Assembly (NCBI GenBank): GCA_964389465.1
Contig: CAYMDK010000004.1
Location: 15,034 to 79,033 of the forward strand
DNA: 64,000 nt
Source: an uncultured archaeon
GTDB lineage: Archaea > Thermoplasmatota > Poseidoniia > MGIII > CG-Epi1
Direction: 5' to 3'
The translations under genes were made by a program, and so were the position numbers. The notes beneath the pieces were generated by a model that was not told the DNA's origin, made no database searches, and worked only from the letters and a program-made list of their open reading frames with translations. Shown in pieces: positions 673-51,668 of the stretch (position 1 is the stretch's first letter; every line of letters begins with the position of its first letter).

Positions 673-694
673 GCTATTGCACGCTGCCTCGCGG

Positions 695-702
695 TTATAA
701 AA
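695..702. promoter_or_regulatory. Shared TATA box (TTATAAAA) for the divergent ABC ATPase and priL genes
   Basis: AT-rich near-palindromic octamer in GC-rich DNA. It lies about 25 nt from GTG 672 (minus) and about 25 nt from GTG 723 (plus), which matches archaeal leaderless spacing. Confidence 0.4.
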
Positions 703-722
703 CCGCAGCACCTGCACTCGTC

Positions 723-2099
723 GTGAGGGACCTCTGGCGCTACCCGTTCCTGCCTGCCGCCCGCGAGGCGGTGCAGGAACTGCAGCTCGAAGATTTGCTC
801 GACGACCCGCTCTACGGGGAAGCGAATTCGATTGCAGTGATGCGACTCGAGGCGGCCGCCGCTGGAGGGAAAATTGCGACCGGCACCCCCTCCGACGAGC
901 GCGAAGAGCAGGACCAGCTGCTCGGGTTCCTGATTTCGCGCCTGATTCTGGCGGCTGCCGGCGACCCCAACCTTGCCAGCCAGGTCGCCCTCGCCGAGGC
1001 GCTGCGCGCCCAGCGATTCCTGGCGTCCGAGGAGGAGGCCGGGCTGGCCCATATCGCGTCCGAGCTGGGGCTTGCTGCGCGGCGCGAGAACGGAGGTTAC
1101 GTAGTCCCCTTCGGCGACTACCTCACCGCTGCCGCCAGCCTTCGTGAGGGCAAGTGGAAACTGGTCAATCGCGGCGTCAGCCACGGAATGGTTTCGCTGC
1201 CACGCGAAGCGCTGGAACGGCTGCTGCGCGAGGTCATCGCCAACCACCTCAGGCAGCTGCCCGAGGCACCCGACGGCATCGCCGAGCGGTATGCGCCCGA
1301 AATCGAGGCGCTGCTGCGCGTGACCAAGCAGCGCCGCGAGAAGGCGATTCGCGAAATGGGCCGGCTCGATTTCGGCAAGGCACCACCCTGCTTCAATGGC
1401 CACCTGGCCGACTTGCAGGCGGGAGTCAACCTGCCGCATCCGGCGCGCTTCTTCCTGACGACGTTCCTGACCGCACTGGGACAGGAGCCCGAACAGATAA
1501 TGCAGCTTTACGCCACTGCGCCCGATTTCAAGGAGTCTGTAACGCGTTACCAGGTCGAGCACATCACCGGCAAAATCTCGGGGACCGAGTACGATACCCC
1601 GGGCTGCGAGACGCTGATTTCGCAGGGCGTCTGCCCCGGCGGCAACGCGCTCTGCCGCGAAATTCCCCACCCCCTCAGCTACTACCGCGTCATGGCTGAG
1701 CACGAGAAGCCCGACGCGGTGCGGCGCAAGCGGCTGCGCCTCGCCGAGGGCCGCGGCGATGCCGGATTCTGGCAGGAGCTGCCGCTCAGGGCGGCTGGCG
1801 AGGCGCCGCAGCGCTCACTCGCTGCGGCGCTCAAGGCTGGTGCGCAGAGCCGGGTCAGGGTACAGGTTAGCTACTTCAGGGCCCGGCGCGACAAGCGCGG
1901 CGACGAGTTTGTCCGCTGGGCCTCGGCACGGCTCGCTGACGATACGGTCGCGAGGCCGCTCGAAACCCTGCCGCTGACGCAGTGGGAGCTGGCGCTGCCG
2001 CTGGCGCACGCGCGGGAGCGGGGCGCGCCGGTCGAGGTGACGCTGCTGCCGGTGAAGCTGGAAAACCAGTCCCGGCTCCACATCCTGGCGGTCGACTGA
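723..2099 (+). CDS. priL: DNA primase large subunit PriL with an extra ~128-aa C-terminal extension
   Basis: ORF 513..2099. Nucleotides 513-722 overlap the ABC gene, so GTG 723 (VRDLWRYPFLPAAREA) is preferred. Motifs seen: APPCFNGHLADLQAGVNLPHPARFFLTTFL and TPGCETLISQGVCPGGNALC, the PriL Fe-S domain signature. Confidence 0.8.
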   Translation: MRDLWRYPFLPAAREAVQELQLEDLLDDPLYGEANSIAVMRLEAAAAGGKIATGTPSDEREEQDQLLGFLISRLILAAAGDPNLASQVALAEALRAQRFLASEEEAGLAHIASELGLAARRENGGYVVPFGDYLTAAASLREGKWKLVNRGVSHGMVSLPREALERLLREVIANHLRQLPEAPDGIAERYAPEIEALLRVTKQRREKAIREMGRLDFGKAPPCFNGHLADLQAGVNLPHPARFFLTTFLTALGQEPEQIMQLYATAPDFKESVTRYQVEHITGKISGTEYDTPGCETLISQGVCPGGNALCREIPHPLSYYRVMAEHEKPDAVRRKRLRLAEGRGDAGFWQELPLRAAGEAPQRSLAAALKAGAQSRVRVQVSYFRARRDKRGDEFVRWASARLADDTVARPLETLPLTQWELALPLAHARERGAPVEVTLLPVKLENQSRLHILAVD

Positions 2100-2105
2100 A
2101 AACGC

Positions 2106-3341
2106 TCAGCCGAGCCGGATGCGGCGGCCGCACTGGCAGATGAATTTGGTCGTCTCGGGCGGGATAGCGTGCTTGCGGTCGCAGTTGGGACAGGTGACCT
2201 GCCGGTCGCCGGCGTGCTGCTCGGCGGGCGCGACGTATTCTTCGCACTTCTGGCAGTAGTAGTCGGTCGCGTAGCCCGAGTCAGGCCAGTGCTGCAGCGC
2301 GCTGCCATCCTTCGGGCAGTGGAAGCCAGCCCCCTTCGGTGCCGGTGGCTTGCCGCTGGGTCGCGGCGGCTTCCCGGAAGGCGCCTTGCGCTTTACCTTG
2401 CGTCCGCTGCGCTTCGCCTTGCGGGCGGTCTTCTTCTTCACCTTGCGGCGGACCGGTGCCGCGGCTGCGGCCGGTGGCGCTGCATCGTCGCCAGCGTCTT
2501 CCCCGGTATCTTCTTCCGAGCTGTCGGCCAGCTCGGCACCAGAGGTCAGCTGCGCCAGCAGCTCAGTTTCGGAGAGTCCCTGCTCAGGAACGTTAGCGCC
2601 GATGCTATCATCAATATCATCATCTTCATACTCGTCATCGTCGTCATCCTCGGTGCTTGGCAGATCCACCTCGTGGCCTGTCCCCATCATGCTTTCCTTG
2701 AGCGGGTCGTATTCTTCCCTCTTCTGCGGCGCCAGTTCCTCGGGGTCGAGCAACCGCTTCACGCCGAAGCCGAGGATCAGCACCAGCAGGAGGCCACCTA
2801 TGGCGTAGGGCAGTATCCCAATGATGCCTGCCAGATCCGGCAGGCTGAGTGAGACACCATCTTCCTCGGCTGCCCTTACGTTGACGAACATCGTCTGTTC
2901 GCCGAGCAGCGAGCCGTTGTCGTGCTGGGCCCGTACGGTAACTTGCAGGACCCCGACGTAGGTGCCGTCGCGCGCGTAGCCGTTGGTTCCTTTCCCGGGC
3001 CACTTGATGTAGTAGCGGTCGAAATCCGGTGGAATCTCGTTATCGTCTGGTGCATCATACGAGGCGACGCCGTCAATCTGGTCCCGCACTGTATCCAGAT
3101 ATTCACCGACCACGACCAGGCGGGAAACATTTTCCTTGTGTGAATCGGTCAGGTCAATCCAGATTTTAATTTCCCGTCCGCTCTCGACCGTGACGGTGTT
3201 TTCGTTGTGCCCCCCCATCAATTCCTCGTTGATGTAGACCGTGATATCGGCCGATGCAGCCGGCATTGCCAGTGCCAGCAGCGCCAGCAAAAGCACGCCA
3301 TATTTGCCCGTCCGCGAGAGCTTATAGATTAACAAGTGCAC
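2106..3341 (-). CDS. Single-pass membrane protein: secreted N-domain, TM, acidic/basic low-complexity linker, C-terminal double zinc ribbon
   Basis: The signal-like N-terminus is GVLLLALLALAMPAASA and the TM helix is LAGIIGILPYAIGGLLLVLILGFGV. An acidic run (DDDDDEYEDDDIDD) and a basic run (VRRKVKKKTARKAKRSGRKVKRK) follow. Four Cys pairs are present: CPKDG..CQKCEE..CPNCD..CQCG. Confidence 0.6.
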   Translation of the reverse strand: MHLLIYKLSRTGKYGVLLLALLALAMPAASADITVYINEELMGGHNENTVTVESGREIKIWIDLTDSHKENVSRLVVVGEYLDTVRDQIDGVASYDAPDDNEIPPDFDRYYIKWPGKGTNGYARDGTYVGVLQVTVRAQHDNGSLLGEQTMFVNVRAAEEDGVSLSLPDLAGIIGILPYAIGGLLLVLILGFGVKRLLDPEELAPQKREEYDPLKESMMGTGHEVDLPSTEDDDDDEYEDDDIDDSIGANVPEQGLSETELLAQLTSGAELADSSEEDTGEDAGDDAAPPAAAAAPVRRKVKKKTARKAKRSGRKVKRKAPSGKPPRPSGKPPAPKGAGFHCPKDGSALQHWPDSGYATDYYCQKCEEYVAPAEQHAGDRQVTCPNCDRKHAIPPETTKFICQCGRRIRLG

Positions 3342-3362
3342 CAGCCGCGGATTTGCCCGCAG

Positions 3363-3370
3363 ATATTAAG
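3363..3370 (-). promoter_or_regulatory. TATA box (minus-strand CTTAATAT) for the 2106..3341 gene
   Basis: AT-rich octamer about 25 nt upstream of the GTG start at 3341. Confidence 0.35.
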
Positions 3371-3405
3371 ATTTCGATTCGCGAGGGAGCCTGCGGACAA
3401 CTGTC

Positions 3406-4692
3406 TCAACTTAACAACAGCCGTTCGCCCTTCGCGGCCGCGTCCCCGCGCGCCCGTTTCGGCACAATCAGCGCGACCGCCCACGGCGGGACAGCGCGCT
3501 GTTGCAATGCCTCCGCCAGCGGCGAGTAGCGTTTGAGCGACCGCAGCCGCCCGCCATCGAGCACGCGGATGCCGGTCGAGGCGATGCGCGGCTCTGAGAG
3601 CAGCAGTTCCGCCAGCGGCAGGTCGATAATGACTTCGCCCGGCTCCAGCCCGAGCCGCTTCGCGATGCGCGCCTCTGCACGGCGACGGTTGGTGGCGTCG
3701 GCCAGCGGCCGCAGCGGTTCGCGGTGCTCGTCACCGATTTCCTGCGGCGAGAGCGCCCAGGCGACCTTGTAGAGCCGTCGGTAGCGCAGCCGCTGGAGTG
3801 TCTCGCGCTGGAAGCCGCCCAGCTCCTCGAGCCGTGCGTCGAGCTCGGTGTCGACCAGCGACTGCACCTCCAGCGCGCCGAGGTCGTCAATCTGCTCGAC
3901 CGCGCGCGCCAGCATCAGCTCGGCGATGCGGACGGTCTTGTGGAAGTAGACTGCCGAGTACATCAGCGTCCGCGCCACCAGCATCCCCTCAACCGCCGGT
4001 ACGCCCGAGCGGGAGATGACCAGCTGGTTGTTGTGCAGCACCAGCGAGTGGACCAGCCGCTCGCCGTCAATCGTGCCGTGCGCCACGCCGGTATAGTGCG
4101 AGTCGCGCAGCAGGTAATCTATCTGGTCGGCGTCGACCGTCGAGTGGACCACCTGCCCGCGATACGCCGGCCCGGAGTAGTGCGCCTGCCCGTCGTGGAC
4201 CGCCAGCCGTGACTGCTCGCTGTCGCCGAGGGAGCCGGTCACCAGCGCCGCCACTTCCGCGGGGTCGAGGTCGTGCGCCGCCAGGACTTCGGGAATGGTC
4301 GCCCCCCCCAGCACCGTATCGGGCGGCGGCTGGCGTCCCGTTATGATGTCTTTGGTAATCGCCATGTGGTCGACGCCCAGCCGCTCGTGCAGGATGGCTT
4401 CGAGCGTGTGCGAATACGGCCCGTGCCCGACGTCGTGGAGCAGCGCCGCCGACGCAATCAGCGCCGTTTCCCATTCCGCGAGCCCGAGGTTGCGGCAGAT
4501 GCGGCGCGCGGTGTGGCCGACACCCAGCGAGTGCTCGAGCCGGGTGTGGTTAGCGCCGGGAAAGACGAGGTGCGCCAAGCCGAGCTGCCGGATGGAGGAG
4601 AGCTTCTGGAACTCGCGCGTCTCGAGCAGCGGCTCGAAGCTGCCTTCAAGCGAAATCGCGCCATGCACGGTGTCGTGCACCACCTGGGCCAT
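3406..4692 (-). CDS. HD-domain phosphohydrolase (COG1078, SAMHD1/dGTPase-like dNTP triphosphohydrolase family)
   Basis: NHTRLEHSLGVGHTARRI ... AALLHDVGHGPYSH metal-binding HD signature. The 428-aa length is typical of this family. Confidence 0.85.
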   Translation of the reverse strand: MAQVVHDTVHGAISLEGSFEPLLETREFQKLSSIRQLGLAHLVFPGANHTRLEHSLGVGHTARRICRNLGLAEWETALIASAALLHDVGHGPYSHTLEAILHERLGVDHMAITKDIITGRQPPPDTVLGGATIPEVLAAHDLDPAEVAALVTGSLGDSEQSRLAVHDGQAHYSGPAYRGQVVHSTVDADQIDYLLRDSHYTGVAHGTIDGERLVHSLVLHNNQLVISRSGVPAVEGMLVARTLMYSAVYFHKTVRIAELMLARAVEQIDDLGALEVQSLVDTELDARLEELGGFQRETLQRLRYRRLYKVAWALSPQEIGDEHREPLRPLADATNRRRAEARIAKRLGLEPGEVIIDLPLAELLLSEPRIASTGIRVLDGGRLRSLKRYSPLAEALQQRAVPPWAVALIVPKRARGDAAAKGERLLLS

Positions 4693-11822: not shown

Positions 11823-12271
11823 GCCAGCGGCTCGCGCGATTCGTCGACCGTGCCCGCTTCGACCTGCCCGACGTAAATCGTGTGGTCGCCCGCTTCGTGC
11901 GCCGCGACGACGCGGCACGCCATGGTCGCGACACATCCATCGAGCAGCGACACGCCGCCGTCCGTAAGCGAGTGCGGCGTCGCAGCGAGCAGCGCCTGCT
12001 TGTCCTGCTCGGGATTGGCGAAGTCCCATGCAAGGCCACCCTGTTCCGTAGAGCAGACCGAGACGCCGAACTTCCCGGCACGCGCAATCGCGTCGTGGCT
12101 GACGACCCCTCGGTCGATGCAGACGAGCACCAGCGGCGGTTCGAGCGAGAGCGAGCAGAAGCTGGAGACAGTCAGCCCGCCAAGGGTGCCGTCGTCGTCG
12201 AAGGTGACGATGGTGACGCCGGCGGGGAACTGCCGCATCAGCGCGCGAAAGGTATCGCCATCGACCGCCAT
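11783..12271 (-). CDS. Flavin reductase-like FMN-binding split-barrel protein
   Basis: FRALMRQFPAGVTIVTFDDDGTLGGLTVSSFCSLSLEPPLVLVCI is the hallmark of the flavin reductase domain. Confidence 0.75.
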   Translation of the reverse strand: MAVDGDTFRALMRQFPAGVTIVTFDDDGTLGGLTVSSFCSLSLEPPLVLVCIDRGVVSHDAIARAGKFGVSVCSTEQGGLAWDFANPEQDKQALLAATPHSLTDGGVSLLDGCVATMACRVVAAHEAGDHTIYVGQVEAGTVDESREPLAYCRAGLGSFSPA

Positions 12272-12318
12272 GCTGCCCTATCGACGACCACTATTTGAGG
12301 CATGCGCGGCAGGAACCC

Positions 12319-12326
12319 ATATTTAT
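12319..12326 (+). promoter_or_regulatory. TATA box (ATATTTAT) for the giant surface-protein gene
   Basis: It ends 30 nt before ATG 12356, the start that yields a clean signal peptide (MSSPRLPLVALALLAALLLFPTADG). Confidence 0.45.
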
Positions 12327-12355
12327 CCCGGTCGCCGGGATGCCGGCGGGAGCCG

Positions 12356-15300
12356 ATGTCCTCACCACGCCTGCCGCTGGTCGCCCTCGCGCTGCTGGCG
12401 GCACTGCTGCTATTTCCTACAGCAGATGGTGAAACAATCATTGTCGACGTTAATGGTAATGGTGACTACACAACAATCGAAGACGGACTGGAGGCTGCTG
12501 AAGACGGTGACCTTGTCCGTATCTGGGACGGCACTTATGTTGAATACAATTTGACTATCGAGGATCAGATTACTGTACGGGGTAATGGCACGTCTACAGT
12601 CGTTAACGCCAGTTGGGAAGGTCACGGCTTCATTGTAGAACGCGATTATGTTGAAATCAGCCATTTACAAGTAGAATCAAGCGCCAATGGTTCTATACCC
12701 GGAGGCCCTTGGTATGCATATTTTTCTGGAGTTTTCGTCAATGACAATGAAGGTGCCCACCTTTATCTGGAGAGCCTGACTCTGGAAGGTAATTACGTAG
12801 GTTTGGCAGTCGATGGAGAGTTCTACATTCATGTCTCAAACAGTACGATAACTAATTCTACTAATAAAGGAGCCTATTTTCAGAGTAGTTGGTACTTGCG
12901 GATAGACAATTCGACATTCAGTAACAATGACAACAACGGCCTCACTTGTTACTATTGTAACCATGCCAGGATTTACTACAGCGTATTCGAAAATAATGGT
13001 GCCCAGGGATTCAAATCAGAGTATGCTTCCAACCAGACGTTTTACGAGACTGATTTTGAGGAGAATACCGGCATTGGCCTTTATTTCCACGCGGGGTCCT
13101 CTAATTCAGTTCGAAACGCGCAATTCGCTAACAACAAGGGCGGTATTACGTTAACCGATTCTTCCACTCAAAATGAAATTGGAGCGTGTCAGGCATACAA
13201 CAATGAGGATCACGGGTACCTTTTCCGTTCAGAATCCACAAGTAACTACTTGAATAATTCCGGTGGTTGGAGCAATGAGTATGCCCTGGTGTTTGAGGAT
13301 AGCTCACATAACAACACCATAAACGGTGGCTTTTATAGTGGAGATGAGGAATCAATCCTTTTCAGTGGAGATCCATCAACAGGCATTATTCTCTATGAAA
13401 CTAACTTCGGAGAGTCCCTGAGCATCAATTCCGGCTCTGAATTATTAATCAAGAAGAACTTGCGTGTCAAGGTCACCGACAACGGCACGAGTGATTCGTG
13501 GAAGATTTATGACAATCAGAGTGACGAGAACCGAGAGGCGTATTCGGGAACGCACGCGATGTGGCTGGGTAACCCGGACAAGAATGATGGCGAATACGAG
13601 GATAACTGGGATTTCTCGTTCGTTACCAAGGATGCGATCTCGCTCGGCAGCTCGCCCAAGTTGAGCATTGCGACGTGGTACAAAACTGAAAATACATACG
13701 ATGGTGGCCATGTACAGATATCTACTGATGGTGGTGAATCCTGGGCCCTGCTAACACCTGCTGGCGGCTATCCCTGCAGCAACGTGGTTGCCCTCGAGGA
13801 TGAAGGTTACTGCAATCAATCGAACGGCTGGAAAATCCAGAATTTCAGCCTCAGCGACTATGACAACGAGGATATCCAACTCCGCTTCCGGTTCGCCTCG
13901 GACGCGTCCCAAAGCAATTACGAAGGCTGGTATATCGACGATGTTACGGTGACTAACGGTGAGCAGACGCTGTTCTCGGACAATTTCGAGAGTGGCAAGG
14001 TAAAATGGATGATTGACCGTTTTGTCGCCCCACAGGAAGGCGTGGACGCCCGCGTCACTGACCGCGATGGAGTGCAGTACGCATCGCCCTATTTTGGAGG
14101 CAGCTCTCCAAAAAGCGATGACAGTGGCTGGCTGAATTACCAAGGAGCTATACCGGTTCCCGGTATCCTGGTAATTACGCAGCGCTACTACTCTAATTCG
14201 ACTGCGACAGACCAGGATGTAGAACTGCGGCTGCGCTACGTTGACTGGCACGAAACACTAGTCCTGAACTTTTCCCAAGGTTATACCAAGAATTTCAAGG
14301 TCCCTGATTTCCGGGTTTACCACTCTGGAGACCTCTACTACAATATTCAGTCCGCAATAGGGAACGCGACCGCGGGCGACACAGTCTATGCCTGGAACGG
14401 GACCTTTCATGAAAACCTGATAATTGACAGGGGGGTGATGTTGCTGGGTAATGGGACCGCAAATACCATAATCGATGGTGTAGGAAATACCGCGATTAGG
14501 GTCACAGGCAAGTACGCCACTATAGCAAACCTGTCTGTCAAGGGGGCTACCAACCTATCTGGCACAAACAGGTTCGGAATTCTTGTAAATGAGTCCGGCG
14601 GAGCACTGAACGCGACCGGCCTGCGACTGTACGACAACTTTCACGGCATCTATTTCAGCACCACCAAGAAATGGGGTTCCCGGGTTGCCGACAGCATAAT
14701 TGAATCGAACACTAACGCTGGGTTCGGCGTCAATACTGCTACTGGCCTTCGCATCGAGAACTGCACAATCAACAATAATGGTGGCGACGGAATTAACCTT
14801 GATACTACCTCCAATATACTGATTTATGGTAACCACATCCATAACAATACCAACCACGGGATTCGCTGGAACGTAGGAGGAACTGGTAATGGTGTCCACC
14901 ACAACAGGATAATCGACAATGGTGGTGACGGGATTCGAACGGCTTATGTTTCAGCTGGTAGTTTTACCTACAATGAAATCCGGAACCATAACACGGGATT
15001 CGGAGGAAACAGGGGAATCTATACTGGAGCCCGGAACAGTGAATTCCTCCACAACAACATCACCGGTAACGGCTACGGCATCACAATCTTTGGCAGCTGT
15101 TGCTCGGGCACACACGGCACCGAAAATCAGGTCTCACATAATTACATCTCCGAGAACTCCTATGGAATAGAGATCTGGTCATGGGCTGGCAGTAACAATC
15201 AACTTCTCTCAAACACAATCAGTGAAAGTGGTAGAGGTATCACCCTCGGCAGTGGTAGTTTCCATACCATTGAAAATTCCACGATATCCGGTAGTAGCGA

Positions 15301-18300
15301 GTATGATTTTTACATAACGACAGGTGAACATACTGTCGTCAATTCCACTTTCTCTTCCATCTGGATATCCACCAGCGCTGATTTGCGTGAGAGGGAGTTG
15401 TTTAGCCTCCGCATTCTGGAAGAGGATGGTGACCTTTTTGTCGATTTTGAAATTGCAGTTGAGGATGGCGCTGGCACAGCATACGCTTCGCCGCACTGGG
15501 GCGGTAGCGACAATCTTACTGATTCGAGTGGCTCTATCCGCCAGCTGCTGCTACTGGTGCAGCACTGGAACGGTTCCGCAACTCCTGATGTTTTTGCGAC
15601 CAAGGTCAAGTACGCCTTTGGCGTCCGCGCCAAGGCGCAATCACATCTGCTGAACCAGACCACGGCACTGGACATCCATGTGCCAGAATACTGGCGCAAG
15701 GGACTGGTGCGTAATGCCAATTCAGGCGAGGACTACTGGTCGCTGGCGACTGCGATCTCTGACGCCGACCCTGGTGATACACTGCGGGTCTGGCAGGGCA
15801 CCTATCCCGAGATAGTCAGTATCGAAAAGTCACTGGTGGTAACTGGCAATTCCACCACAGGCGTCCTGCTGAAAGCCATCGGTGACGCTTACGCAATTGA
15901 CATTGATGCCGACTCTGTCACGATTCGAAACCTGACTGTTCTGGACGGTAGAGGACTCTATCTTGACAAGCTCTCGAATGATGTAACGCTGGAGTGGTTG
16001 GTAATCCACAATTCCTCGATTAATGGTATTTATGCATTCCAGAACGACAATCTGGCCTTCTCCAATCTGACCGTCACTAACAGCTCCGAGCAGGGGATAG
16101 TGTTCTACAAGACAACCAGCAGCGTTGTTAGCGACTGCGCTGTTTCGAATAGCGGCGGCTCCGGTATCACGGTCGATTCTGCCGACAGCGTTGAGTTGCA
16201 CAGAATTACCCTGACCGGTAATGGAGGATCCGGAATCCGCTTTGACACAAGCGATTCAATATCAGTCAGGGACAGTATCATTCGTGACAATGCTCAGGGA
16301 TCCTGGGAGATTCTTTCGACAAACACGGACGGGCTGGTCCTTGACAATATATCCCTTTTTGGCAGGGAGCTAATCCAGCTTGATGATAATGAGCGGGCCC
16401 ACCTGTCCAACCTGACCCTGGAAATCACCCAGTTTCTGGGCATGGCCATAAAACTGGTGGAATCCGATTCCAACACCCTTCGTGATGTCCTGGTCTCTAC
16501 CATGGCAGATTCAGGCAGTGGAATAATTCTGGACGATTCCAGCGATAACCTGCTCATCAACTGTACCGTCAACGACGTCCAGTACGAGGCGTTCTACTTC
16601 CGGAACTCCGCCAACGACAACACCCTCCTGGATTCGACCGCCTCCGGCGGGCAGTTAGCCCGCCTCAAGTTGTCGACGGCAAGCGGAACAGTGGTCCGCA
16701 ACAGTACTTTCTCTGGCGCTGGAGACGACAGTGGAATCCAGCTCAGTTCCGCGACCGGCACGACTCTGGATAACATTACTACCAAGGATAACGGCGCAGA
16801 TTCAGGCCACAGTGGCCTGGATACTTCCGCCTCTGATGACCTGCTCGTCAAGAATTCCCACTTCAGCAACAATGCGGGCCGCGGCGCCTATATATTTAAC
16901 TCTGATAATGTGGTTATATATTCCAACCAGTTCGACAGCAACGCCAACGGTCTGGTTCTCTGGACTGTGGATAATGTGCGTGCCTCCCACAACAGCTTTG
17001 AGATTGGGGACGGCAATGCCATTGAGTTGCGTTATGGTTCGAACAGCTGGATTGACAACAATACCATCGAGCAGTACGGGAATGACGCCTCACAGTATTT
17101 TGGCATTGGAGTATTCTTCTCGAGCGGAAACAGAATCCATAACAATACTGTTTCCGACAGTGAAGTCACTGGCATACTGCTTGGTGCCGAGTCCGAATCC
17201 AATTACGTGACCGAGAATGAGCTGACACGAATCGAGAATTCAGCCCTCCATATAATCCATGACAACAACTACCTTGCCCGGAATACCCTCTCCGAAACCG
17301 AGTCGACCGGTATCACGATAGAGGGAGACTGGAACGACATTGTCGATAACGTGGTAACTGACGGTGAGGCGTCCGGGATTGAGGTGTTCGGCAGTAATAA
17401 CCAGATTGCTGGAAACAACATTTCCGGAAACTCCGACATTCCGTTCCGGGTTCCAGGCCACTGGAACACATTTTATGGAAATACGGTTGACGCCGCAGAC
17501 GAGGATGCGGTACTGGTTTCCGGCAGCAACAACCAGTTTACTGGCAACCAGCTCACCAACGGCGATATCGGCTTCCTCGTTACCAGCGACTGGAACCAGT
17601 TCAATACCAACATCCTAAGTTTCTTCAACGAAGCCTGCTTTGACCTCAGTGGCGATTATATAACCCTTCAGGGCAACCACTGCTCGGCCGCGGCAGAGGG
17701 TGCCCGGCTGGCTTCGGTTACCGGCACACTCGCCTGGGATAACAACTGGATCGGAGTTGAGACAGCCTTATACCTATCCGGCTCAGCCGGTAACCAGTTC
17801 ACCAACGAATCCGTCTCGGCAGCTTCGCAGGCGCTGATTCTGATGGTCAGCAGCGATAATGAATTCAGCGGTTCTTCACTCGCAGGCGAAATCCACCTGA
17901 CATCCAACTCGACTGCCAACTACCTCAACAGCTCCGCGTTGCAGGGTACAATTAACTGCGATTCCACCTCGCAGCTCTTCATCGCTGACGACATCACCAT
18001 CGAGGCACGCAACAGCGATTTCGATACTCCGTTCGAGGGTGTCCACTTGCGTCTCAAGGCTGACGGGCAGGTGATCTATGTTACCTCCCACTTCAACGGT
18101 AGCGATGCTACCACTGGTGAAGACGGCCGCATCGAGCCGCAGATGCTGGTCCACACCAGCTATACTGGCAGCTCTGACCCTGAGTCCACGGAATTCAGGC
18201 TGGCGTATGCCTACCGCCTGCGGCAGGAAGCAACCGTGTTCAACACTACGGAGTCGCACCTGGAAACAATCCACATTCCGGATGAATGGAACTACGGTCT

Positions 18301-21300
18301 GGTCCAGAACCTGCGGACCGGTGAAGAATACGGGCTGATTTCCGACGCGGTCGAAAATGCGAACGAGGGAGATGAGTTGCTGGTATGGCCCAGCCTCTAC
18401 GAGGAGTCGATAACGGTTGACAAGCGGGTCACAATTACCGGGCTTGGTCCGGGAGTGAGGGTGCAGGGCGGCCCTGAAGCTGCCTTCAACCTTGGAAATG
18501 ACGGTACAGTGTTGCAGAACCTGTCAATCGGAAACTCTTCCTTTGGCATCAATGTTTACGGTGTGGATATCCAGCTCACAAACCTTACTATTTCCGATAT
18601 CGAGTTTGTAGGAATCTGGACTTCATCCACCTCGGTAGTAGCGCGACTCCAGATGCGTGATATTCAGATAACCAACGCTTCTGAAGGATTATGGCTTGAC
18701 GGTCACGACTTCAACTTGGAGAGGGTTTTTGTGTCCCAGAATAGACATGCCTCCTCACTGAATCAGTATGGTTCCGGGCACCAAATTACATATTCCAGCT
18801 TTTCTGACTCAGCTACCATCTATAACGGTGACCTGATTGAACTAGAGAATGTAGTTTTTGCGATGTTAGGGTTGAGTAATCAGACCAATGCCCTGCTTGA
18901 AAATGTAACGTCAGATTACTTGAGTATTGAGGGAGGTCACGACAACCTGTTGCGACAGAGCAACATAGCCAACCACATTTCTTTGTGGGGAAGCTCGATT
19001 GGCAACCGCGCACTGGGCACTTCTTTCAGCAGCATTATTTGTGAGGAAGGCAGCACCCTCCTCATCGAACATCGCACAGTGATTGAGCTGCGCACGGTAG
19101 AAGGGGCAGGAAGCTGGCTGGAGATTCAGGTAACTGAGGACAGTATCGGTTTGCAGAACCAGATAGTCTACTCTACTTCCTTCTTTGGAGGCGGCGATGC
19201 CGCCTCAGATGAAGATGGTCAGCTGCCAGAGCTGCTGATAGCTGGAACGATCTACAATGGGAGTTCGGTCCCGGTTCCGGCCGTGACGGATGTAAAGGTT
19301 CAGTTCAACGGCATCCAGGAATTCAGCTTCAACCTTACCGTAGATTCAACGAAGAGAATATGGCTCAACCTGCCCCCTGTACCAGAGATAGAATCCGTAG
19401 AACCAAGTCCCGCCATCCAGGGTGACTTGCGGTCACCGGTTGACAGCGGAACTATTGCGTGGTGGCCGTTGGACGAAGGCAGCGGCACGCATGTCATCGA
19501 CGCGAGCGGCAATGGCAATAACCTGACGCTGGGTCCAACCCCGTCCTGGGTACCCGGCCAGTCCGGCAGCGCCGTCCACTTTGATGGCTTGGACCGCCAC
19601 CTTGCCGGCCCGCTAATCAAACCGACCGAGATGACGATTGAATTATGGTTCAACACAATCGACAGCGGTATCGGGACGCTAATCTCTGATTACTACAGCG
19701 GAGACAGCAACCGGAACCACCATTTCTACCTGCTGAATGGTGAGCCCCGCTTCGAGCAGACTCAGGGCGGCGTGCCGCTCTCACTGGCGGCTGGTTTCCA
19801 GTTCAACGACGGATTATGGCACCACGTTGCGGTGGTCCGTTCCGCGGACGAGGTGAGCCTGTGGGTTGACGGGGAGTTGCTCGATTCAACGCCCTCGAGT
19901 GGTGCAGACACTTCTGAGAGCAACACCTGGCTCGGTATGTCGCCTGACCAGAGTAACCCCTATGCGGGCCTGCTGGACAACATACGTGTTTCTAATTTTG
20001 CCCGCCACCCAGAAGATTTTCTGATTGGGGGTGGGACGGTAAAATTTTCCGGTATTGGAAATGACCCAGATGGACTAATTTCCAACTGGACTTGGATATC
20101 ATCTGAGGATGGTATTTTGGGATATGATGAATTTCTAGAGTTTGCAGTTGACAGTCTCAGTCTGGGCAGTCACTCAATCACTCTCCAGGTTGTAGACAAT
20201 AACGGTAGTGCTACCCAGTCAAGTACCGGTCTGTCCGTTAAGCGGCGGCCTGGAGCGGTAATTGTCAATCCACCTTCTTTGGTGCACGAGGGAGATATCG
20301 TTACATTACAGGGCGAGGCGACCGGTGGGATTCCTATCTCTTCTTGGGAGTGGTGGTCTGACAAGGCTGGTCTTCTCGGTAGTGACGAAACAATCCAGAT
20401 ATCCACCTTGACGAACGGTACTTACAACATCACGTTGCGGCTGCAGGCCTCCAGTGGCCTCTGGAGCGAAAACACGACAGTTGCCATCTACGTAAATGGC
20501 CGCCCGCGGCTTTCCGACCCTTCTATCACGGCACTGCTGATGGTGCGGGGCGGGGTCATCTCGTTCGGCGCCGCCGGCATGGACGATGCGGACGCCGGCG
20601 CGGAGCTGGTTTTCAGCGCTGCCTACCGCCGCGTCGGCACCAGTAGCTGGGAATCCGCCTACATCTCGCCGTCAGCCTGGGATGCGGGACGTGTGGAGTT
20701 CAGTTTCAGCCCCGACTTCGACGCCTCGCTCGGCAGCTACCTGTTCCAGCTGCAGGCACAGGACAGCCACGGCGGCCTCTCGGGCTGGCTGGTACTGCCG
20801 CTACCGGTGGAGGTCACCAACATCCCGCCGCAGGTCTCGACTACACTGGTCCCGGACTCAGTGGTCAGCGCCGACGGGCCAATGCTCGAGTTCAGCGCAG
20901 TCTTCTCCGATACCGACGGCAGCGTGGAGCAGCTCCAGTGGGTATCCAGTCTGGATGGAGTGCTTTCGACCAACGCCAGCTTCTCGATGAGCCCCGAGAG
21001 CTTCACTGCTGGCAACCATACCATTACGCTGCGCGTGCAGGACAACGACGGCACCTGGAGTGAGACTTCGTTCACGGTCGAGGTGCAGCCGGTCACTATG
21101 CCGGATGAGGAGTTTTTCGGCATTGACAGAAGAAACTTGCTGATTGTTGCCGCAGCACTACTGCTCGGGACGCTGCTGCTCGGTGGTGGACTTCTGCTCC
21201 GTTCGCGCGAGCCGGCAGTCATCGCGACGGTTGCTGACGACGCCGAGGAAGAGCAGCCGCAACGGCTGGTCGAGAGCTGGCTGCCTCCCGAAGGACTCGA

Positions 21301-23986
21301 GGGATACGAGCAGCTGGTCGCAGAATACATGGCGCGCCGCCGCGAGGCGTACCTAGCGGCGCCGAACAACGAAAAGGAGCTGGACTACCTCCATAACAAC
21401 CGCGAGCGGTTTGCGATTTCATCCTACTTCGAGGTCCCGGTCGACCCGGCGCACGTCATCAGCGACTGGGCACTGCCTGAAAACCTGCGTGGAAATGTCC
21501 ATGTCGACGCGGTCCGCAGCGAAATCATCGAGCGGGTGCTTACCGGGCCGCCCGACCGCAACTACGTCATCATTGGCGAGCCGGGCGTCGGCAAGACGGT
21601 GCTGCTGTTCGAGCTGTTCGACCGATTGATGGACCGCATCCCGGTCGGTCGCATCTCGACCACCACTCTTGGAAAGGCGCACGAGAAGTTCGGCGTGCGG
21701 CTGTTTTACGACGATATCCAGGAGAACACCGAGCTGGTGCAGGCGCTTACCGACCGGCAGATTAGCGGCGTCATCCTGAGCGCCCGCGAGGCGGACTGGG
21801 CCTCCCTGCCGGCCGAGTTCCAGGCGCAGTTCGACCGGCTGACGGTGCCGCTCTTCTCCGGGAGCGAGATGAAGCTGCTCAGCCGCAAGATGCTCGGCTT
21901 CTCGGGCCTCGGCTACGACGCGGCGGCCATCGAATCGCTGGTGCAGTTTGCCGAAGGCTCCCCTATCTACGTCTGGTCGATGATTCGCGAAATGCTGCAC
22001 CGCGGTCTGCGGGCGCTCACCGCCGACTACATCCAGGAAAACGCCATTCGTGGAATGAACAACTACGTTTCGTTGCTACTGCAGCGGCTGCTCAAGGAGG
22101 GCGAGGAGTACCGCCCTGGCGGTCTCCACGCACTTACCTCGCTGGTGTTCCTCGCGGAAACCATGGAGGAGCGCTTCTGCCACGACCTGTTCTACGACGC
22201 GGCGGTCGAGCGGCTTTCGGCCCACGCGCAGGAGCAGCTTAATGACCCGATGGACCAGGGCACCTTCAACCGCGCGCTGGCATACCTGCCGGGCGACGGC
22301 AGCGTCATCAAATTCCCGCACGACACCTGGGTTGACGTTATCCTGGGCCACGGCGACCTGAATCCGTTCCGCACCGAGCTGCGCGCAATCTTCAGGCAGT
22401 TTGTAGACAGCGGCCTTTTCGAGAAGGTCAAGCGTGAAGTCGTCCCCGGCGTATGGGAAACCACCGCCAGCCGCTACCATCGTAGTCCGTCACGGCAGAA
22501 AGGCTCGTTCCTCGCCCTCGCGGATACGCTACTCCATAACTTCCAGGTTTCCGAGCTGAAGGAGCTGGGAGTCGATATCGAGCTGATTCGCGAGGTCGCC
22601 TCGACCTACTCCCACCTGCCGGCCGCCGCGTCGCTGGTGTCGCGCATCCAGGCGGCCGAGCCGCAGCAGGTGACCCGGATTATCAACATCCAGGATTCGG
22701 TTTCGCCCGCTAGTGGAGGTCACCCGCCTTACCGGATTGAGGAGCTTTACCTGATTTACAATGACGGCCGTCTTATCACGGGGCAGTCGCTCAAGGAAAC
22801 CGCAATCGACCAGGACATCATGGGCAGCATGCTCACCGCTATCAACGACTTCGTCCAGGACTCGTTCCATGCGGCGGGGGAACTGGGGTCAATCAACTAC
22901 GGCGACAACCGTATCATGATTGAGCGCGGCGAGCAGGCGGTGCTGGCAGTGGTTATATACGGCGAGGAGACGCGCGAACTCCGCTCGCAGGTTGCGAACA
23001 CCTTGCTGCAGATCGAGGAGCGTTTTAGCAGAGAGCTCGCCGGCTGGGATGGCGATGTCGAACTGCTCTCGGGAACGCGCGAAATCCTGACGCCGCTACT
23101 CGACGCCACTCGCAAAGTCAGCCGTGAGATGATTGACGAATACCTCGCGCTCCAGAAGGTCGGCCTGCGGGCGAGCTGGGAGCACGTCGCCGGTCACGTT
23201 CGCGTCCAGATGGAGGTGTGCAACTATGATTCGCAACCGCTCACCGAGGCGCACCTGAAGCTGGAGCGGACCGCGTCGCTGCTCGAGCTGGTCGCGACAC
23301 AACCGGAAACGGAGCAGACCGGCAGCGGCGTACGCCTCGGCGAAATCGAGCCGCACGACAGCCGCGAGCTGGTGTTCTGGTTCGAACCGCGCGGAGCCGG
23401 TTCCGCCTCCCTCGCGTTGCGGCTCGACTACCGTGATTCCGAAGGTCGTAATGCTGGTGTGACGACGACGCTCTTCGCCGGTGCCGAGGTCTTCCGCAAG
23501 GATGACCTGCCCGACGGGAAGGCGCTACAGAAGCTGCTGAAAGGTGGCAAATCCGCCAGGCCACCTGCCGCGGCCGCGCCAGCCGAAACGGTCGAGGTGG
23601 CTGCGGAAGAGCAGGTTCCGGTAGCTGAGGCAGAAATAGTGGTCGAGACGGAAGTCATCGTGGAACCCGGGCCGGAGCCGGAACCGCCGGCAGAAGCTGT
23701 TGCCGAGCCCGAGCCGGAAGATGAAAAGGAACTAGAACCAGAGCCGGAACTGCTCGACCTTGGCGAGTCAGGGATGGATGACCTTCTCGGCAAGCTCTCG
23801 GAACTTGGCCCCGAAGCCCAGCCGGAATCCGGGGATAAATCATCTGACGATGAATATAAAAAAGCTGGAGAGGAATCTGACGTCGTGAATCCAGCTTCTA
23901 AGAAGAAGAAACAGAAACCCGGCAACGATAATGATGATGGTGAGCTGGGCGATATCTTCGCCAAGTTGAAGGAACTGGACGATTAA
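12356..23986 (+). CDS. Giant type-I membrane protein: beta-helix/LamG/PKD ectodomain - TM - cytoplasmic P-loop (STAND-like) NTPase + Roadblock-like domain + acidic tail
   Basis: Single uninterrupted ORF (track 12302..23986; ATG 12356 preferred). It has a signal peptide and four cap motifs of the pectate-lyase/NosD-like beta-helix type: YTTIEDGLEAAEDGDLVRIWDGTY, YNIQSAIGNATAGDTVYAWNGTF, WSLATAISDADPGDTLRVWQGTY and GLISDAVENANEGDELLVWPSLY. Each cap is followed by N/G/I-rich ~22-aa PbH1-like repeats. A MAM/choice-of-anchor-J-like sandwich is present (HVQISTDGGESW..LRFRFASD..GWYIDDVTV), as are LamG (LWHHVAVV..LWVDGEL..IRVSNFAR) and four PKD-like domains. The TM helix is LLIVAAALLLGTLLLGGGLLL. Walker A is GEPGVGKT and Walker B-like is VRLFYDD. 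Confidence 0.9.
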   Translation: MSSPRLPLVALALLAALLLFPTADGETIIVDVNGNGDYTTIEDGLEAAEDGDLVRIWDGTYVEYNLTIEDQITVRGNGTSTVVNASWEGHGFIVERDYVEISHLQVESSANGSIPGGPWYAYFSGVFVNDNEGAHLYLESLTLEGNYVGLAVDGEFYIHVSNSTITNSTNKGAYFQSSWYLRIDNSTFSNNDNNGLTCYYCNHARIYYSVFENNGAQGFKSEYASNQTFYETDFEENTGIGLYFHAGSSNSVRNAQFANNKGGITLTDSSTQNEIGACQAYNNEDHGYLFRSESTSNYLNNSGGWSNEYALVFEDSSHNNTINGGFYSGDEESILFSGDPSTGIILYETNFGESLSINSGSELLIKKNLRVKVTDNGTSDSWKIYDNQSDENREAYSGTHAMWLGNPDKNDGEYEDNWDFSFVTKDAISLGSSPKLSIATWYKTENTYDGGHVQISTDGGESWALLTPAGGYPCSNVVALEDEGYCNQSNGWKIQNFSLSDYDNEDIQLRFRFASDASQSNYEGWYIDDVTVTNGEQTLFSDNFESGKVKWMIDRFVAPQEGVDARVTDRDGVQYASPYFGGSSPKSDDSGWLNYQGAIPVPGILVITQRYYSNSTATDQDVELRLRYVDWHETLVLNFSQGYTKNFKVPDFRVYHSGDLYYNIQSAIGNATAGDTVYAWNGTFHENLIIDRGVMLLGNGTANTIIDGVGNTAIRVTGKYATIANLSVKGATNLSGTNRFGILVNESGGALNATGLRLYDNFHGIYFSTTKKWGSRVADSIIESNTNAGFGVNTATGLRIENCTINNNGGDGINLDTTSNILIYGNHIHNNTNHGIRWNVGGTGNGVHHNRIIDNGGDGIRTAYVSAGSFTYNEIRNHNTGFGGNRGIYTGARNSEFLHNNITGNGYGITIFGSCCSGTHGTENQVSHNYISENSYGIEIWSWAGSNNQLLSNTISESGRGITLGSGSFHTIENSTISGSSEYDFYITTGEHTVVNSTFSSIWISTSADLRERELFSLRILEEDGDLFVDFEIAVEDGAGTAYASPHWGGSDNLTDSSGSIRQLLLLVQHWNGSATPDVFATKVKYAFGVRAKAQSHLLNQTTALDIHVPEYWRKGLVRNANSGEDYWSLATAISDADPGDTLRVWQGTYPEIVSIEKSLVVTGNSTTGVLLKAIGDAYAIDIDADSVTIRNLTVLDGRGLYLDKLSNDVTLEWLVIHNSSINGIYAFQNDNLAFSNLTVTNSSEQGIVFYKTTSSVVSDCAVSNSGGSGITVDSADSVELHRITLTGNGGSGIRFDTSDSISVRDSIIRDNAQGSWEILSTNTDGLVLDNISLFGRELIQLDDNERAHLSNLTLEITQFLGMAIKLVESDSNTLRDVLVSTMADSGSGIILDDSSDNLLINCTVNDVQYEAFYFRNSANDNTLLDSTASGGQLARLKLSTASGTVVRNSTFSGAGDDSGIQLSSATGTTLDNITTKDNGADSGHSGLDTSASDDLLVKNSHFSNNAGRGAYIFNSDNVVIYSNQFDSNANGLVLWTVDNVRASHNSFEIGDGNAIELRYGSNSWIDNNTIEQYGNDASQYFGIGVFFSSGNRIHNNTVSDSEVTGILLGAESESNYVTENELTRIENSALHIIHDNNYLARNTLSETESTGITIEGDWNDIVDNVVTDGEASGIEVFGSNNQIAGNNISGNSDIPFRVPGHWNTFYGNTVDAADEDAVLVSGSNNQFTGNQLTNGDIGFLVTSDWNQFNTNILSFFNEACFDLSGDYITLQGNHCSAAAEGARLASVTGTLAWDNNWIGVETALYLSGSAGNQFTNESVSAASQALILMVSSDNEFSGSSLAGEIHLTSNSTANYLNSSALQGTINCDSTSQLFIADDITIEARNSDFDTPFEGVHLRLKADGQVIYVTSHFNGSDATTGEDGRIEPQMLVHTSYTGSSDPESTEFRLAYAYRLRQEATVFNTTESHLETIHIPDEWNYGLVQNLRTGEEYGLISDAVENANEGDELLVWPSLYEESITVDKRVTITGLGPGVRVQGGPEAAFNLGNDGTVLQNLSIGNSSFGINVYGVDIQLTNLTISDIEFVGIWTSSTSVVARLQMRDIQITNASEGLWLDGHDFNLERVFVSQNRHASSLNQYGSGHQITYSSFSDSATIYNGDLIELENVVFAMLGLSNQTNALLENVTSDYLSIEGGHDNLLRQSNIANHISLWGSSIGNRALGTSFSSIICEEGSTLLIEHRTVIELRTVEGAGSWLEIQVTEDSIGLQNQIVYSTSFFGGGDAASDEDGQLPELLIAGTIYNGSSVPVPAVTDVKVQFNGIQEFSFNLTVDSTKRIWLNLPPVPEIESVEPSPAIQGDLRSPVDSGTIAWWPLDEGSGTHVIDASGNGNNLTLGPTPSWVPGQSGSAVHFDGLDRHLAGPLIKPTEMTIELWFNTIDSGIGTLISDYYSGDSNRNHHFYLLNGEPRFEQTQGGVPLSLAAGFQFNDGLWHHVAVVRSADEVSLWVDGELLDSTPSSGADTSESNTWLGMSPDQSNPYAGLLDNIRVSNFARHPEDFLIGGGTVKFSGIGNDPDGLISNWTWISSEDGILGYDEFLEFAVDSLSLGSHSITLQVVDNNGSATQSSTGLSVKRRPGAVIVNPPSLVHEGDIVTLQGEATGGIPISSWEWWSDKAGLLGSDETIQISTLTNGTYNITLRLQASSGLWSENTTVAIYVNGRPRLSDPSITALLMVRGGVISFGAAGMDDADAGAELVFSAAYRRVGTSSWESAYISPSAWDAGRVEFSFSPDFDASLGSYLFQLQAQDSHGGLSGWLVLPLPVEVTNIPPQVSTTLVPDSVVSADGPMLEFSAVFSDTDGSVEQLQWVSSLDGVLSTNASFSMSPESFTAGNHTITLRVQDNDGTWSETSFTVEVQPVTMPDEEFFGIDRRNLLIVAAALLLGTLLLGGGLLLRSREPAVIATVADDAEEEQPQRLVESWLPPEGLEGYEQLVAEYMARRREAYLAAPNNEKELDYLHNNRERFAISSYFEVPVDPAHVISDWALPENLRGNVHVDAVRSEIIERVLTGPPDRNYVIIGEPGVGKTVLLFELFDRLMDRIPVGRISTTTLGKAHEKFGVRLFYDDIQENTELVQALTDRQISGVILSAREADWASLPAEFQAQFDRLTVPLFSGSEMKLLSRKMLGFSGLGYDAAAIESLVQFAEGSPIYVWSMIREMLHRGLRALTADYIQENAIRGMNNYVSLLLQRLLKEGEEYRPGGLHALTSLVFLAETMEERFCHDLFYDAAVERLSAHAQEQLNDPMDQGTFNRALAYLPGDGSVIKFPHDTWVDVILGHGDLNPFRTELRAIFRQFVDSGLFEKVKREVVPGVWETTASRYHRSPSRQKGSFLALADTLLHNFQVSELKELGVDIELIREVASTYSHLPAAASLVSRIQAAEPQQVTRIINIQDSVSPASGGHPPYRIEELYLIYNDGRLITGQSLKETAIDQDIMGSMLTAINDFVQDSFHAAGELGSINYGDNRIMIERGEQAVLAVVIYGEETRELRSQVANTLLQIEERFSRELAGWDGDVELLSGTREILTPLLDATRKVSREMIDEYLALQKVGLRASWEHVAGHVRVQMEVCNYDSQPLTEAHLKLERTASLLELVATQPETEQTGSGVRLGEIEPHDSRELVFWFEPRGAGSASLALRLDYRDSEGRNAGVTTTLFAGAEVFRKDDLPDGKALQKLLKGGKSARPPAAAAPAETVEVAAEEQVPVAEAEIVVETEVIVEPGPEPEPPAEAVAEPEPEDEKELEPEPELLDLGESGMDDLLGKLSELGPEAQPESGDKSSDDEYKKAGEESDVVNPASKKKKQKPGNDNDDGELGDIFAKLKELDD
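19447..20020 (+). other. LamG/concanavalin-A-like lectin domain inside the giant protein
   Basis: WWPLDEGSGTHVIDASGNGNNLTL..GQSGSAVHFDG..MTIELWF..LWHHVAVVRSADEVSLWVDGEL..AGLLDNIRVSNFAR is the classic LamG_3 pattern. Confidence 0.7.
21137..21199 (+). other. Single predicted transmembrane helix of the giant protein
   Basis: LLIVAAALLLGTLLLGGGLLL is followed by RSREP, so the positive-inside rule places the C-terminal ~930 aa in the cytoplasm. Confidence 0.7.
21575..21598 (+). other. Walker A (P-loop) codons GEPGVGKT in the cytoplasmic part of the giant protein
   Basis: These codons are in frame with the ORF. The Walker B-like VRLFYDD lies at 21695-21715 and LTVPLFSGSEMKLLSRKM follows, a pattern typical of STAND / Arch_ATPase-type NTPases. 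Confidence 0.65.
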
Positions 23987-24012: not shown

Positions 24013-24088
24013 TGGTGCGGGTGCCGGAATTTGAATCCGAGTTCTCAGCTTGGCAAGCTGAAGTGATACCAGGCTACACCACACCCGC
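24013..24088 (-). tRNA. tRNA-Gly (anticodon GCC), CCA encoded
   Basis: The reverse complement is GCGGGTG TG GTGT AGCCTGGTA TCAC T TCAGC TTGCCAA GCTGA GAAC TCGGA TTCAAAT TCCGG CACCCGC A CCA. The 7-bp acceptor, D, anticodon and T stems all pair, and the anticodon loop is TT-GCC-AA. Confidence 0.9.
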
Positions 24089-51649: not shown

Positions 51650-51668
51650 ACCGGCGCGAGAGAATTTA

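Follow-up and report, generated by a model that had tools for sequence, protein, structure and literature searches.

The 64,000-nucleotide stretch of DNA analysed here (the window; contig C4:15034-79033 of G000, a metagenome bin of 31 contigs and 1.26 Mb with a GC content of 0.647 and a completeness of 89.6%) comes from a high-GC archaeon of the Poseidoniia and contains a giant open reading frame (ORF), for which a surface-exposed type-I membrane protein of giant size is predicted. Most of the ectodomain of this protein is encoded by DNA that is shifted toward A and T. Comparison with related species indicates that the predicted ectodomain is a mosaic of many exchanged tracts and not a foreign insert. 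We consider it probable that it represents a patchwork of tracts recombined among related species, some of them of lower GC, with a signal peptide, a membrane anchor, and an inner part that are native. Surface exposure is predicted because a signal peptide and a single transmembrane helix enclose beta-helix, MAM, laminin-G (LamG), and PKD domains. With this predicted exposure, conflicting segment trees, defined breakpoints, and young tracts, the locus has the features of a recombination-diversified mosaic surface-protein gene, as far as sequence comparison can indicate.

Base composition of the giant gene

An earlier note, made from the letters of the window, had described an AT-shifted stretch inside the giant ORF, and this stretch is real. 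The GC content at third codon positions (GC3) is 0.59 over amino acids (aa) 44-2725 and 0.80 in the rest of the ORF and the genome, with steps at about 12420 and 20402; GC3 is not uniform along the ORF. The two line counts given in the note (22/60 G+C at 12841-12900 and 45/60 at 47041-47100) are exact. In 1-kb windows, GC is 0.48-0.53 over 12001-19000, 0.66-0.71 just upstream, and 0.65-0.71 downstream, and GC3 per 300 nt ranges from 0.39 to 0.74 between 12602 and 20401 and from 0.70 to 0.91 between 20402 and 23401. The maximum-likelihood change point of GC3 is codon 2700 (nt 20402), the log-likelihood remaining within 2.5 units over 20402-20540, and a single change point gains 78.3 units, whereas 20 codon shuffles gave no more than 6.5. 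The step at the 5' end takes GC3 from 0.80 and 0.65 within codons 1-40 down to 0.30 in codons 41-60 (from nt 12422); it rests on few codons, of which codons 1-18 are probably untranslated. The low-GC block is heterogeneous, with a GC3 of 0.47 in its first 367 codons and 0.61 after them. The description of both ends of the ORF as host-like applies up to about 12420 and after about 20402, but not to the acidic tail (aa 3751-3894), which has a GC3 of 0.57.

The shift is synonymous. Over aa 39-2700, the observed GC3 is 0.579, whereas 0.824 is expected from the same amino acids and reference codon preferences (the reference set was pre-filtered to GC3 > 0.75; unfiltered long ORFs give 0.80), and all 18 amino acids tested are shifted AT-ward. 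The loss of G and C at third positions thus exceeds the effect of amino-acid composition, as had been proposed. A resemblance to highly expressed genes, which the note had named as evidence against its claim, was not found: the genes for aEF1a, aEF2, and two thermosome subunits have GC3 values of 0.83-0.85, not 0.59. Only 29 of the 536 ORFs of at least 300 aa in G000 have a GC3 of 0.592 or lower. Among 2-kb windows of the genome (n = 1217; mean GC 0.648, standard deviation 0.049, 5th percentile 0.555), the seven consecutive windows below 0.545 at the giant gene constitute the longest such run.

Orthologs and ancestry of the ectodomain

Two clades, A and B, were set by the flanking genes PolB, SPP, and Lhr, independently of the ectodomain. 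Clade A consists of G000, G003, G005, G006, L063, L064, L065, L067, and L068, in which the three flanking genes show 92-96% aa identity to those of G000 and GC3 values of 0.75-0.88. Clade B consists of G002, G004, G007, G008, and L066, with 85-88% aa identity and GC3 values of 0.59-0.76 (0.60-0.65 for SPP and Lhr of L066). For housekeeping genes, GC3 is 0.80-0.89 in clade A and 0.59-0.70 in clade B. The loci L063 to L068 are six orthologous loci from a single metagenome scan, which returned seven loci, the seventh being a 29% match.

The gene order PolB-orf188-giant gene-SPP-Lhr, with PolB and orf188 upstream and SPP and Lhr downstream, is conserved in both clades. The gene content of the site is constant, as it holds a single gene that is collinear from end to end in G003 (3873 aa, 74.7% aa identity) and G002 (3907 aa, 73.5%; both over about 3900 aa). 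Full-length or near-full-length orthologs were recovered from five of the eight other genomes of the genus (G002, G003, G004, G006, and G008), and those of G004, G006, and G008 are interrupted by contig ends. G007 gives an ortholog fragment, and G001 and G005 give only weak partial-domain matches (E about 1e-16). When the C-terminal 1161 aa (aa 2734-3894) were used as the query, matches were obtained in 31 of 41 related genomes, including, at E ≤ 0.001, all eight other genomes of the genus. Homologs from the sister genus show 47-49% identity and a GC3 of about 0.23. The giant gene is therefore not absent from close relatives, and no mobility or integrase genes were found in the low-GC block. 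The G002 bin also contains a second giant homolog (L020; G002:C121:14000-27189) with an open frame of 3550 aa and a GC3 of 0.33-0.50. Its C-terminal part is only 47% identical, resembling the sister-genus type, and it may be a paralog, a transfer, or bin contamination.

The ancestry of the block was scanned in a codon alignment of 13 sequences as synonymous third-position identity in 150-aa windows. The identity between G000 and L068 is 0.96-0.99 in aa 1-300, 751-1050, and 1651-1800 and 0.38-0.62 in aa 1951-2700. The identity between G000 and L065 is 0.96-0.97 in aa 1051-1800, 0.91-0.92 in aa 2251-2550, and 0.46-0.48 in aa 2101-2250 and 2551-2700. L063 is 0.95-0.98 identical to G000 over aa 2101-2850 and then 0.70-0.80, which is the level of every other clade-A sequence (the backbone). 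Along the block, the nearest relative of G000 switches at least six times, the tracts being nearest to L068, L065, L063, or L066.

Synonymous (dS) and nonsynonymous (dN) divergence, calculated by NG86, indicates that the tracts are younger than the species split. In the backbone (aa 2970-3750), G000 has a dS of 0.42-0.60 to clade-A species and of 1.70 to G002, the latter lying in the saturated range above 1, and dN/dS is 0.05-0.10. In the exchanged ectodomain tracts, dS is 0.048-0.088, which is 9-30 times below that of the backbone, and dN/dS is 0.2-0.7. A cross-clade tract shared by G003 and G002 (aa 1001-1150) has a dS of 0.087, and a cassette shared by G000 and L066 has a dS of 0.19, so that the tracts span 0.048-0.19 compared with 0.42-1.70 for the backbone. 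L065 is 0.95 identical to clade B at the nucleotide level in aa 1851-1950. For the whole ectodomain (aa 44-2550), the dS between clades A and B (0.79) is lower than that within clade A (0.97); species boundaries are therefore erased in the ectodomain.

A lower-GC donor background was shown directly for the G000-L066 cassette, which is about 0.5 kb long and contains a PKD domain, and it is implied for several other short tracts. Over 19952-20401, G000 is 91-97% identical at the nucleotide level to the clade-B contig L066, compared with 0.68-0.73 in the left flank and 0.54-0.73 in the right flank. The cassette has an overall GC3 of 0.44 and ranges from 0.27 to 0.53 in both G000 and L066, whereas GC3 is at least 0.80 to its right. 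Maximum chi-square tests with permutations placed the left breakpoint at 19941-19949, where the ratio of L066-like to L065-like sites changes from 1/47 on the left to 114/17 on the right (0 of 1000 permutations). The right breakpoint was placed at 20435-20474 (informative sites 177/59 versus 152/488; 0 of 500 permutations) and coincides with the GC3 step at 20402. A further breakpoint relative to L063 is located at 20810-20867 (0 of 500 permutations).

The segment trees are incongruent. In the cassette tree, G000, L063, and L066 group together with a support of 100/100, and none (0%) of the 200 bootstrap trees has a branch that sets clade A apart. In the trees of the membrane-proximal part (aa 2726-2836) and the cytoplasmic part (aa 2970-3750), clades A and B are split with a support of 100/100. 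At the other end of the block, G000 and G002 differ at 23 of 75 positions in the signal peptide and at 28 of 321 positions in aa 44-150 (p = 3e-6); the predicted signal peptide is clade-specific by this comparison, and the next 107 codons are common to both clades. The proposal that the export signal and the membrane and cytoplasmic modules are native agrees with these results, since these parts follow the species tree. Both the trees and the identity scan give the low-GC block and the downstream part different nearest relatives.

The codon usage of the ectodomain points in the same direction. In terms of relative synonymous codon usage, the G000 ectodomain (GC3 0.592 in this comparison) has its nearest counterpart in the ectodomain of clade B (r = 0.93, d = 1.15), followed by clade-B housekeeping genes (d = 2.47, GC3 0.632) and, far off, its own genome (d = 4.11, GC3 0.80). 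Among the species-representative genomes, a search for the cassette donor yielded only the three known clade-B orthologs (73-76%) and an unrelated 34% match as the fourth locus; the cassette allele was found only in L066. Six low-GC homologs, of which four belong to the sister genus and the others are the second G002 copy and G035, likewise showed no high-identity tract by BLASTN.

Explanations for the AT shift

On the most probable reading of these observations, the giant gene is a fixed, syntenic core locus across the genus, the exposed ectodomain of which is inherited non-vertically, in tracts that measure from a few hundred nucleotides to around 2 kb. These tracts would be carried by homologous recombination from one species to another within the genus, and also to and from the sister clade with its much lower GC3. 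If the imported tracts retain the composition of the shared pool (GC3 about 0.55-0.6, near that of clade-B genomes), the ectodomain would appear AT-shifted inside a genome with a GC3 of 0.8. The signal peptide, the membrane-proximal Ig domains, the transmembrane helix, and the cytoplasmic module would not be exchanged across clades and would carry the host composition. New combinations would most likely be kept because viruses, or other partners recognising the exposed domains, exert a frequency-dependent pressure. A route of DNA uptake is presumed, and transfer is suggested, by composition only, to run from lower-GC to higher-GC species.

An alternative is that the composition arose in situ. 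The weakly constrained ectodomain would then have escaped the force that keeps GC3 high, either selection on codons or biased gene conversion, under AT-biased mutation, and recombination would be incidental to composition. As the main cause we regard this as unlikely, but an in-situ component of the AT shift is likely because of the low-GC pool, the AT-shifted tail, the lack of an amelioration signal, the sparse clade B, and the metagenome-only data. The points in this paragraph and the next weigh against import as the full account. GC3 in the acidic tail is low throughout the alleles (0.57-0.68 for clade A, 0.28-0.36 for clade B), and the tail shows the identity pattern of the species tree, with no exchange signal; the G000 genome can therefore produce low GC3 in situ. 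The clade-B ectodomain, with a GC3 of 0.55, lies 0.08 below clade-B housekeeping genes (0.63). The ectodomain pool, including the first 367 codons of G000 (0.47), is below the background of any sampled donor genome of the genus, and donor composition alone is therefore not the full explanation. Different alleles also resemble one another in how GC3 varies with position, each having, for example, its minimum in the first 300 aa, which could reflect shared ancestry or a positional effect. The dN/dS ratio of the ectodomain also exceeds that of the cytoplasmic part, as is expected from weak constraint. Clade-A copies of recently shared tracts showed no GC-ward amelioration (9 AT>GC versus 15 GC>AT changes, and 8 versus 18 on the clade-B branch), although this polarity test sums four tracts and is underpowered with very small counts. 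Among 20 other low-GC3 ORFs of G000 that were scanned, a mixed and flexible set, seven encode extracellular repeat proteins.

The comparison set adds further points of this kind, beginning with the saturation of dS above 1. All G- and L-numbered comparators are metagenome assemblies. Clade B is effectively one or two alleles, as G002, G008, and L066 are nearly identical: the aa identity over aa 2101-3600 is 0.97-1.00 for G002-G008 and G008-G004, and L066 is at most 0.004 from G002 and G008 in the tree of the cytoplasmic part. G004/L052 is somewhat farther, with 0.91-1.00 aa identity to G002 over aa 2551-3750. These one or two clade-B alleles contained no high-GC tract and thus gave no sign of bidirectional exchange. 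The L065 ortholog carries two frameshifts. Its N-terminal third (L065:2289-6121) lies in three frames, with shifts near aa 490 and aa 1008, and represents either a pseudogene or an assembly error.

Several observations are difficult to reconcile with drift alone. At identical positions (aa 2251-2700), GC3 ranges from 0.44 (G000 and L063) to 0.87-0.89 (G003) among clade-A alleles, with 0.77-0.89 in G003, G006, and L068 taken together and 0.44-0.73 in G000 and L063; the composition thus goes with the allele rather than with the position. As described above, the GC3 step falls at a recombination breakpoint. The tracts with the lowest GC3 are those most similar to clade B: of 298 50-aa windows of clade-A ectodomains, the 22 that are at least 0.90 identical in nucleotides to a clade-B sequence have a mean GC3 of 0.51, compared with 0.64-0.74 in the other identity bins (Spearman -0.31; windows and sequences are not independent). 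In addition, other giant surface genes of G000 (e.g., window 35720-41629) have GC3 values of 0.85-0.86.

The earlier note had favoured replacement of the ectodomain by DNA from a lower-GC relative. Recombination with lower-GC relatives is upheld by our results, but one horizontal replacement of the whole block of about 8 kb from one donor is very improbable. It would account for the sharp compositional steps at both ends and for a codon usage near that of the lower-GC clade. However, it is already contradicted by the tract mosaic, in which the nearest relative changes at least six times, and it is not supported because collinear full-length orthologs exist in the genus and low GC3 over about aa 41-1800 is common to all clade-A alleles. 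The clade-B ortholog is overall only 73.5% identical, and the block lacks mobility genes. Between the block and the nearest tRNA gene (24013-24088) lie 3.5 kb of DNA with host-like composition.

The least credible explanation is an assembly chimera, in which reads of a high-GC and a lower-GC population were joined across conserved stretches; G000 is a metagenome bin of 31 contigs and related populations co-occur in public runs, but independent contigs contain the same junctions, which makes a chimera unlikely. The same composite occurs in L063 (aa 2104-2850), where it sits on the backbone of another species, and L064 agrees with the right-hand part of this composite and with the breakpoint near aa 2850. 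A contig of run X12, which carries no flag as a potential source of the window, bridges the 3' junction (20365-20704) with two differences, and another X12 contig tracks the window to 19948 and is then unlike it for 255 letters, branching at the left breakpoint. The cassette is, moreover, not fully identical to that of L066. Contig cover of 20067-23972 at ≥95% identity is thin in runs X12 and X15, and contig depth cannot rank the parts of the gene. Two joints in run X10 (12394>24302 and 12408>25051), which skip the whole gene, were rejected because their shorter side is only 21-22 letters (caution limit 30) and because of Leu/Ala-rich GC repeats.

Protein architecture, known systems, and other low-GC DNA

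Table 1. Features of the giant gene and the adjacent tRNA gene in window coordinates (domains and topology as predicted).
Feature	Position	Residues	Strand	Remarks
Giant ORF	12302..23986	3894 aa as listed	+	ORF listing
Signal peptide	12356..12430	19-43	+	Hydrophobic segment; GC-rich, clade-specific
AT-shifted distal ectodomain, putative recombination mosaic common to the genus	12422..20450	~41-2716	+	GC3 0.59 vs 0.82 expected
Right-handed beta-helix block 1	12563..13246	88-315	+	Pfam Beta_helix and NosD
InhA-like MAM domain	13637..14026	446-575	+	Pfam PF20773, E 1.4e-16
Beta-helix block 2	14363..15367	~688-1022	+	Pfam Beta_helix/NosD
Beta-helix block 3	15920..17437	~1207-1712	+	Pfam Beta_helix/NosD
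Ectodomain stretch without Pfam match	17702..19501	1801-2400	+	Includes the most divergent window, aa 2101-2250
Laminin-G/concanavalin-like domain	19613..20014	2438-2571	+	Pfam Laminin_G_3, E 4.7e-17
PKD-domain cassette shared with L066	19945..20450		+	Pfam PKD aa 2575-2641; lowest GC3 near the 3' boundary
Membrane-proximal ectodomain with Ig/PKD-like domain (aa 2850-2928)	20477..21130	2726-2943	+	Big_9/PKD_4 matches
Transmembrane helix	21131..21202	2944-2967	+	Kyte-Doolittle peak 2.42
Conserved cytoplasmic region	21203..23551	2968-3750	+	Follows the species tree
Acidic low-complexity tail	23552..23983	3751-3894	+	GC3 0.57 vs 0.81 expected
tRNA-Gly(GCC)	24013-24088		-	27 nt past the giant ORF stop, between the giant ORF and the signal-peptide peptidase gene

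The true start of the gene is probably the ATG at 12356 (M19) rather than the listed start of the ORF, because a TATTTAT motif (12320-12326) is located 36 nt upstream and M19 is directly followed by the hydrophobic signal segment. The preceding 18 codons (12302-12355), which contain this motif and translate to 'NPYLSRSPGC', are kept in both clades and are probably promoter and leader, not coding. In the most divergent window of the ectodomain, the aa identity to G000 is 0.46-0.57 in every allele but L063. The membrane-proximal ectodomain has a GC3 of 0.80-0.87 and is clade-A specific, yet still allelic. The cytoplasmic part comprises 927 aa in total and ends with the acidic tail; aa 3001-3600 show 0.88-0.96 aa identity within clade A. 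Residues 3474-3723 resemble the terminal domains of many other proteins in related genomes (31-45% identity). G000 also encodes PolB, PolD DP2, and primase.

The cytoplasmic region contains a Walker A motif (GEPGVGKT at aa 3092, nt 21575-21598) and an AAA_16 match of 29 bits, which is below the Pfam cutoff of 32.6. The motif and this weak match point to a possible likeness to STAND/AAA_16-type P-loop NTPase receptors. As a tentative and rather improbable extension, the gene might encode a membrane-spanning recognition receptor, in which an ectodomain sensor diversified by a cross-species cassette library would be coupled to a STAND-like NTPase that transduces the signal. If so, it would correspond in archaea to the polymorphic receptors of innate immunity or of self/non-self recognition, and GC3 would serve as a built-in clock of the residence time of a cassette in a high-GC host.

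Bacterial mosaic surface-antigen genes, such as those of pneumococcal and neisserial surface proteins, are shaped by interspecies recombination. The giant gene is similar in its block-wise ancestry, sharp breakpoints, and conserved anchoring ends. It differs in that it belongs to a free-living planktonic archaeon with no immune system as the driver and in that there are no silent cassettes in the genome: self-BLAST of the gene and BLAST against G000 (89.6% complete) revealed no internal nucleotide repeats, tandem repeats, or second or silent copies, and no template of a diversity-generating retroelement or silent-cassette copy of the variable region, the only match being to itself. A classical compositional genomic island is foreign DNA that has not yet ameliorated. 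The giant gene resembles such an island in its atypical GC and codon usage relative to the host genome. In contrast, it is collinear in relatives and lacks integrase and mobility genes, and its anomaly, a mosaic in its own right, is confined to a single ORF.

Surface loci of aquatic prokaryotes, an archaeon among them, are already known to undergo homologous recombination. Replacement flexible genomic islands and cell-wall islands of these organisms are exchanged in this way (Lopez-Perez et al. 2014, PMC4033161; PMC4535781); GI1 of Haloquadratum walsbyi is one example, and an event of about 250 bp in the S-layer gene was reported (PMC4535781). Such islands share with the giant gene an exposed surface product, conserved syntenic flanks, diversity that arises when lineages recombine homologously, short events within a gene for a surface protein, and viral pressure as the proposed driver. 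Unlike these islands, which are clusters of varying gene content, the giant locus consists of one gene with collinear alleles, and its exchange crosses species and a GC3 gap of 0.2, so that composition marks the tracts. VARTIG of Thermococcales is a large Ig-domain protein with a hypervariable domain that apparently arises through inter-species gene recombination, and its authors found no counterparts outside Thermococcales (Makarova et al. 2021, PMC8416519). Both are large archaeal proteins with Ig-type domains and a part apparently made hypervariable by inter-species recombination. The giant gene differs in its lineage, in its beta-helix/MAM/LamG/PKD ectodomain with a transmembrane helix and a cytoplasmic P-loop region, and in its downstream genes (tRNA-Gly, SPP, and Lhr), which are conserved and not variable. 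It is set apart from VARTIG arCOG07710 by description, not by sequence. Our literature search found no description of the giant gene or of a mosaic surface gene in Poseidoniia. The gene differs from the known systems in its lineage, its architecture, and its being a single collinear gene with tracts that cross a large GC gap.

Little is known about how planktonic Poseidoniia, which are abundant and uncultured, vary their surfaces. At this locus, an exposed ectodomain is exchanged between species at the scale of domains. Because the clades differ by about 0.2 in GC3, imported tracts are visibly tagged by composition, and the gene offers a natural experiment on gene flow between diverged archaeal species and on amelioration. 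It also informs which parts of a putative giant receptor vary and which stay fixed (the signal peptide, stalk, transmembrane helix, and putative cytoplasmic NTPase). As a practical warning, a compositional island within an ORF need not indicate a foreign insert or a binning error.

Other low-GC DNA is present in the window and elsewhere in G000. An ATG22/MFS transporter gene (51582-53225, + strand) has a GC3 of 0.34-0.36 and adjoins a paralog (49817-51649) with a GC3 of 0.84. Its orthologs are 93-96% identical at the nucleotide level, with a GC3 of 0.29-0.30 in both clades, and the sister-genus ortholog shows 73% identity and a GC3 of 0.23. The pattern suggests the sweep of a low-GC gene across species; because the gene is nearly identical in both clades, low-GC DNA appears to circulate across the genus at other loci too. 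A 499-aa ORF (54494-55993, + strand) without a Pfam match has a GC3 of 0.58 and lies inside a 1-kb GC dip of 0.526. Further islands of G000 (C8:1-4500, C17:9877-12045, C19:14000-17800, and C16:1-1900) have GC contents of 0.37-0.47 and ORF GC3 values of 0.32-0.38, much lower than that of the giant gene, and one of them encodes a DUF7948/SBBP beta-propeller protein.

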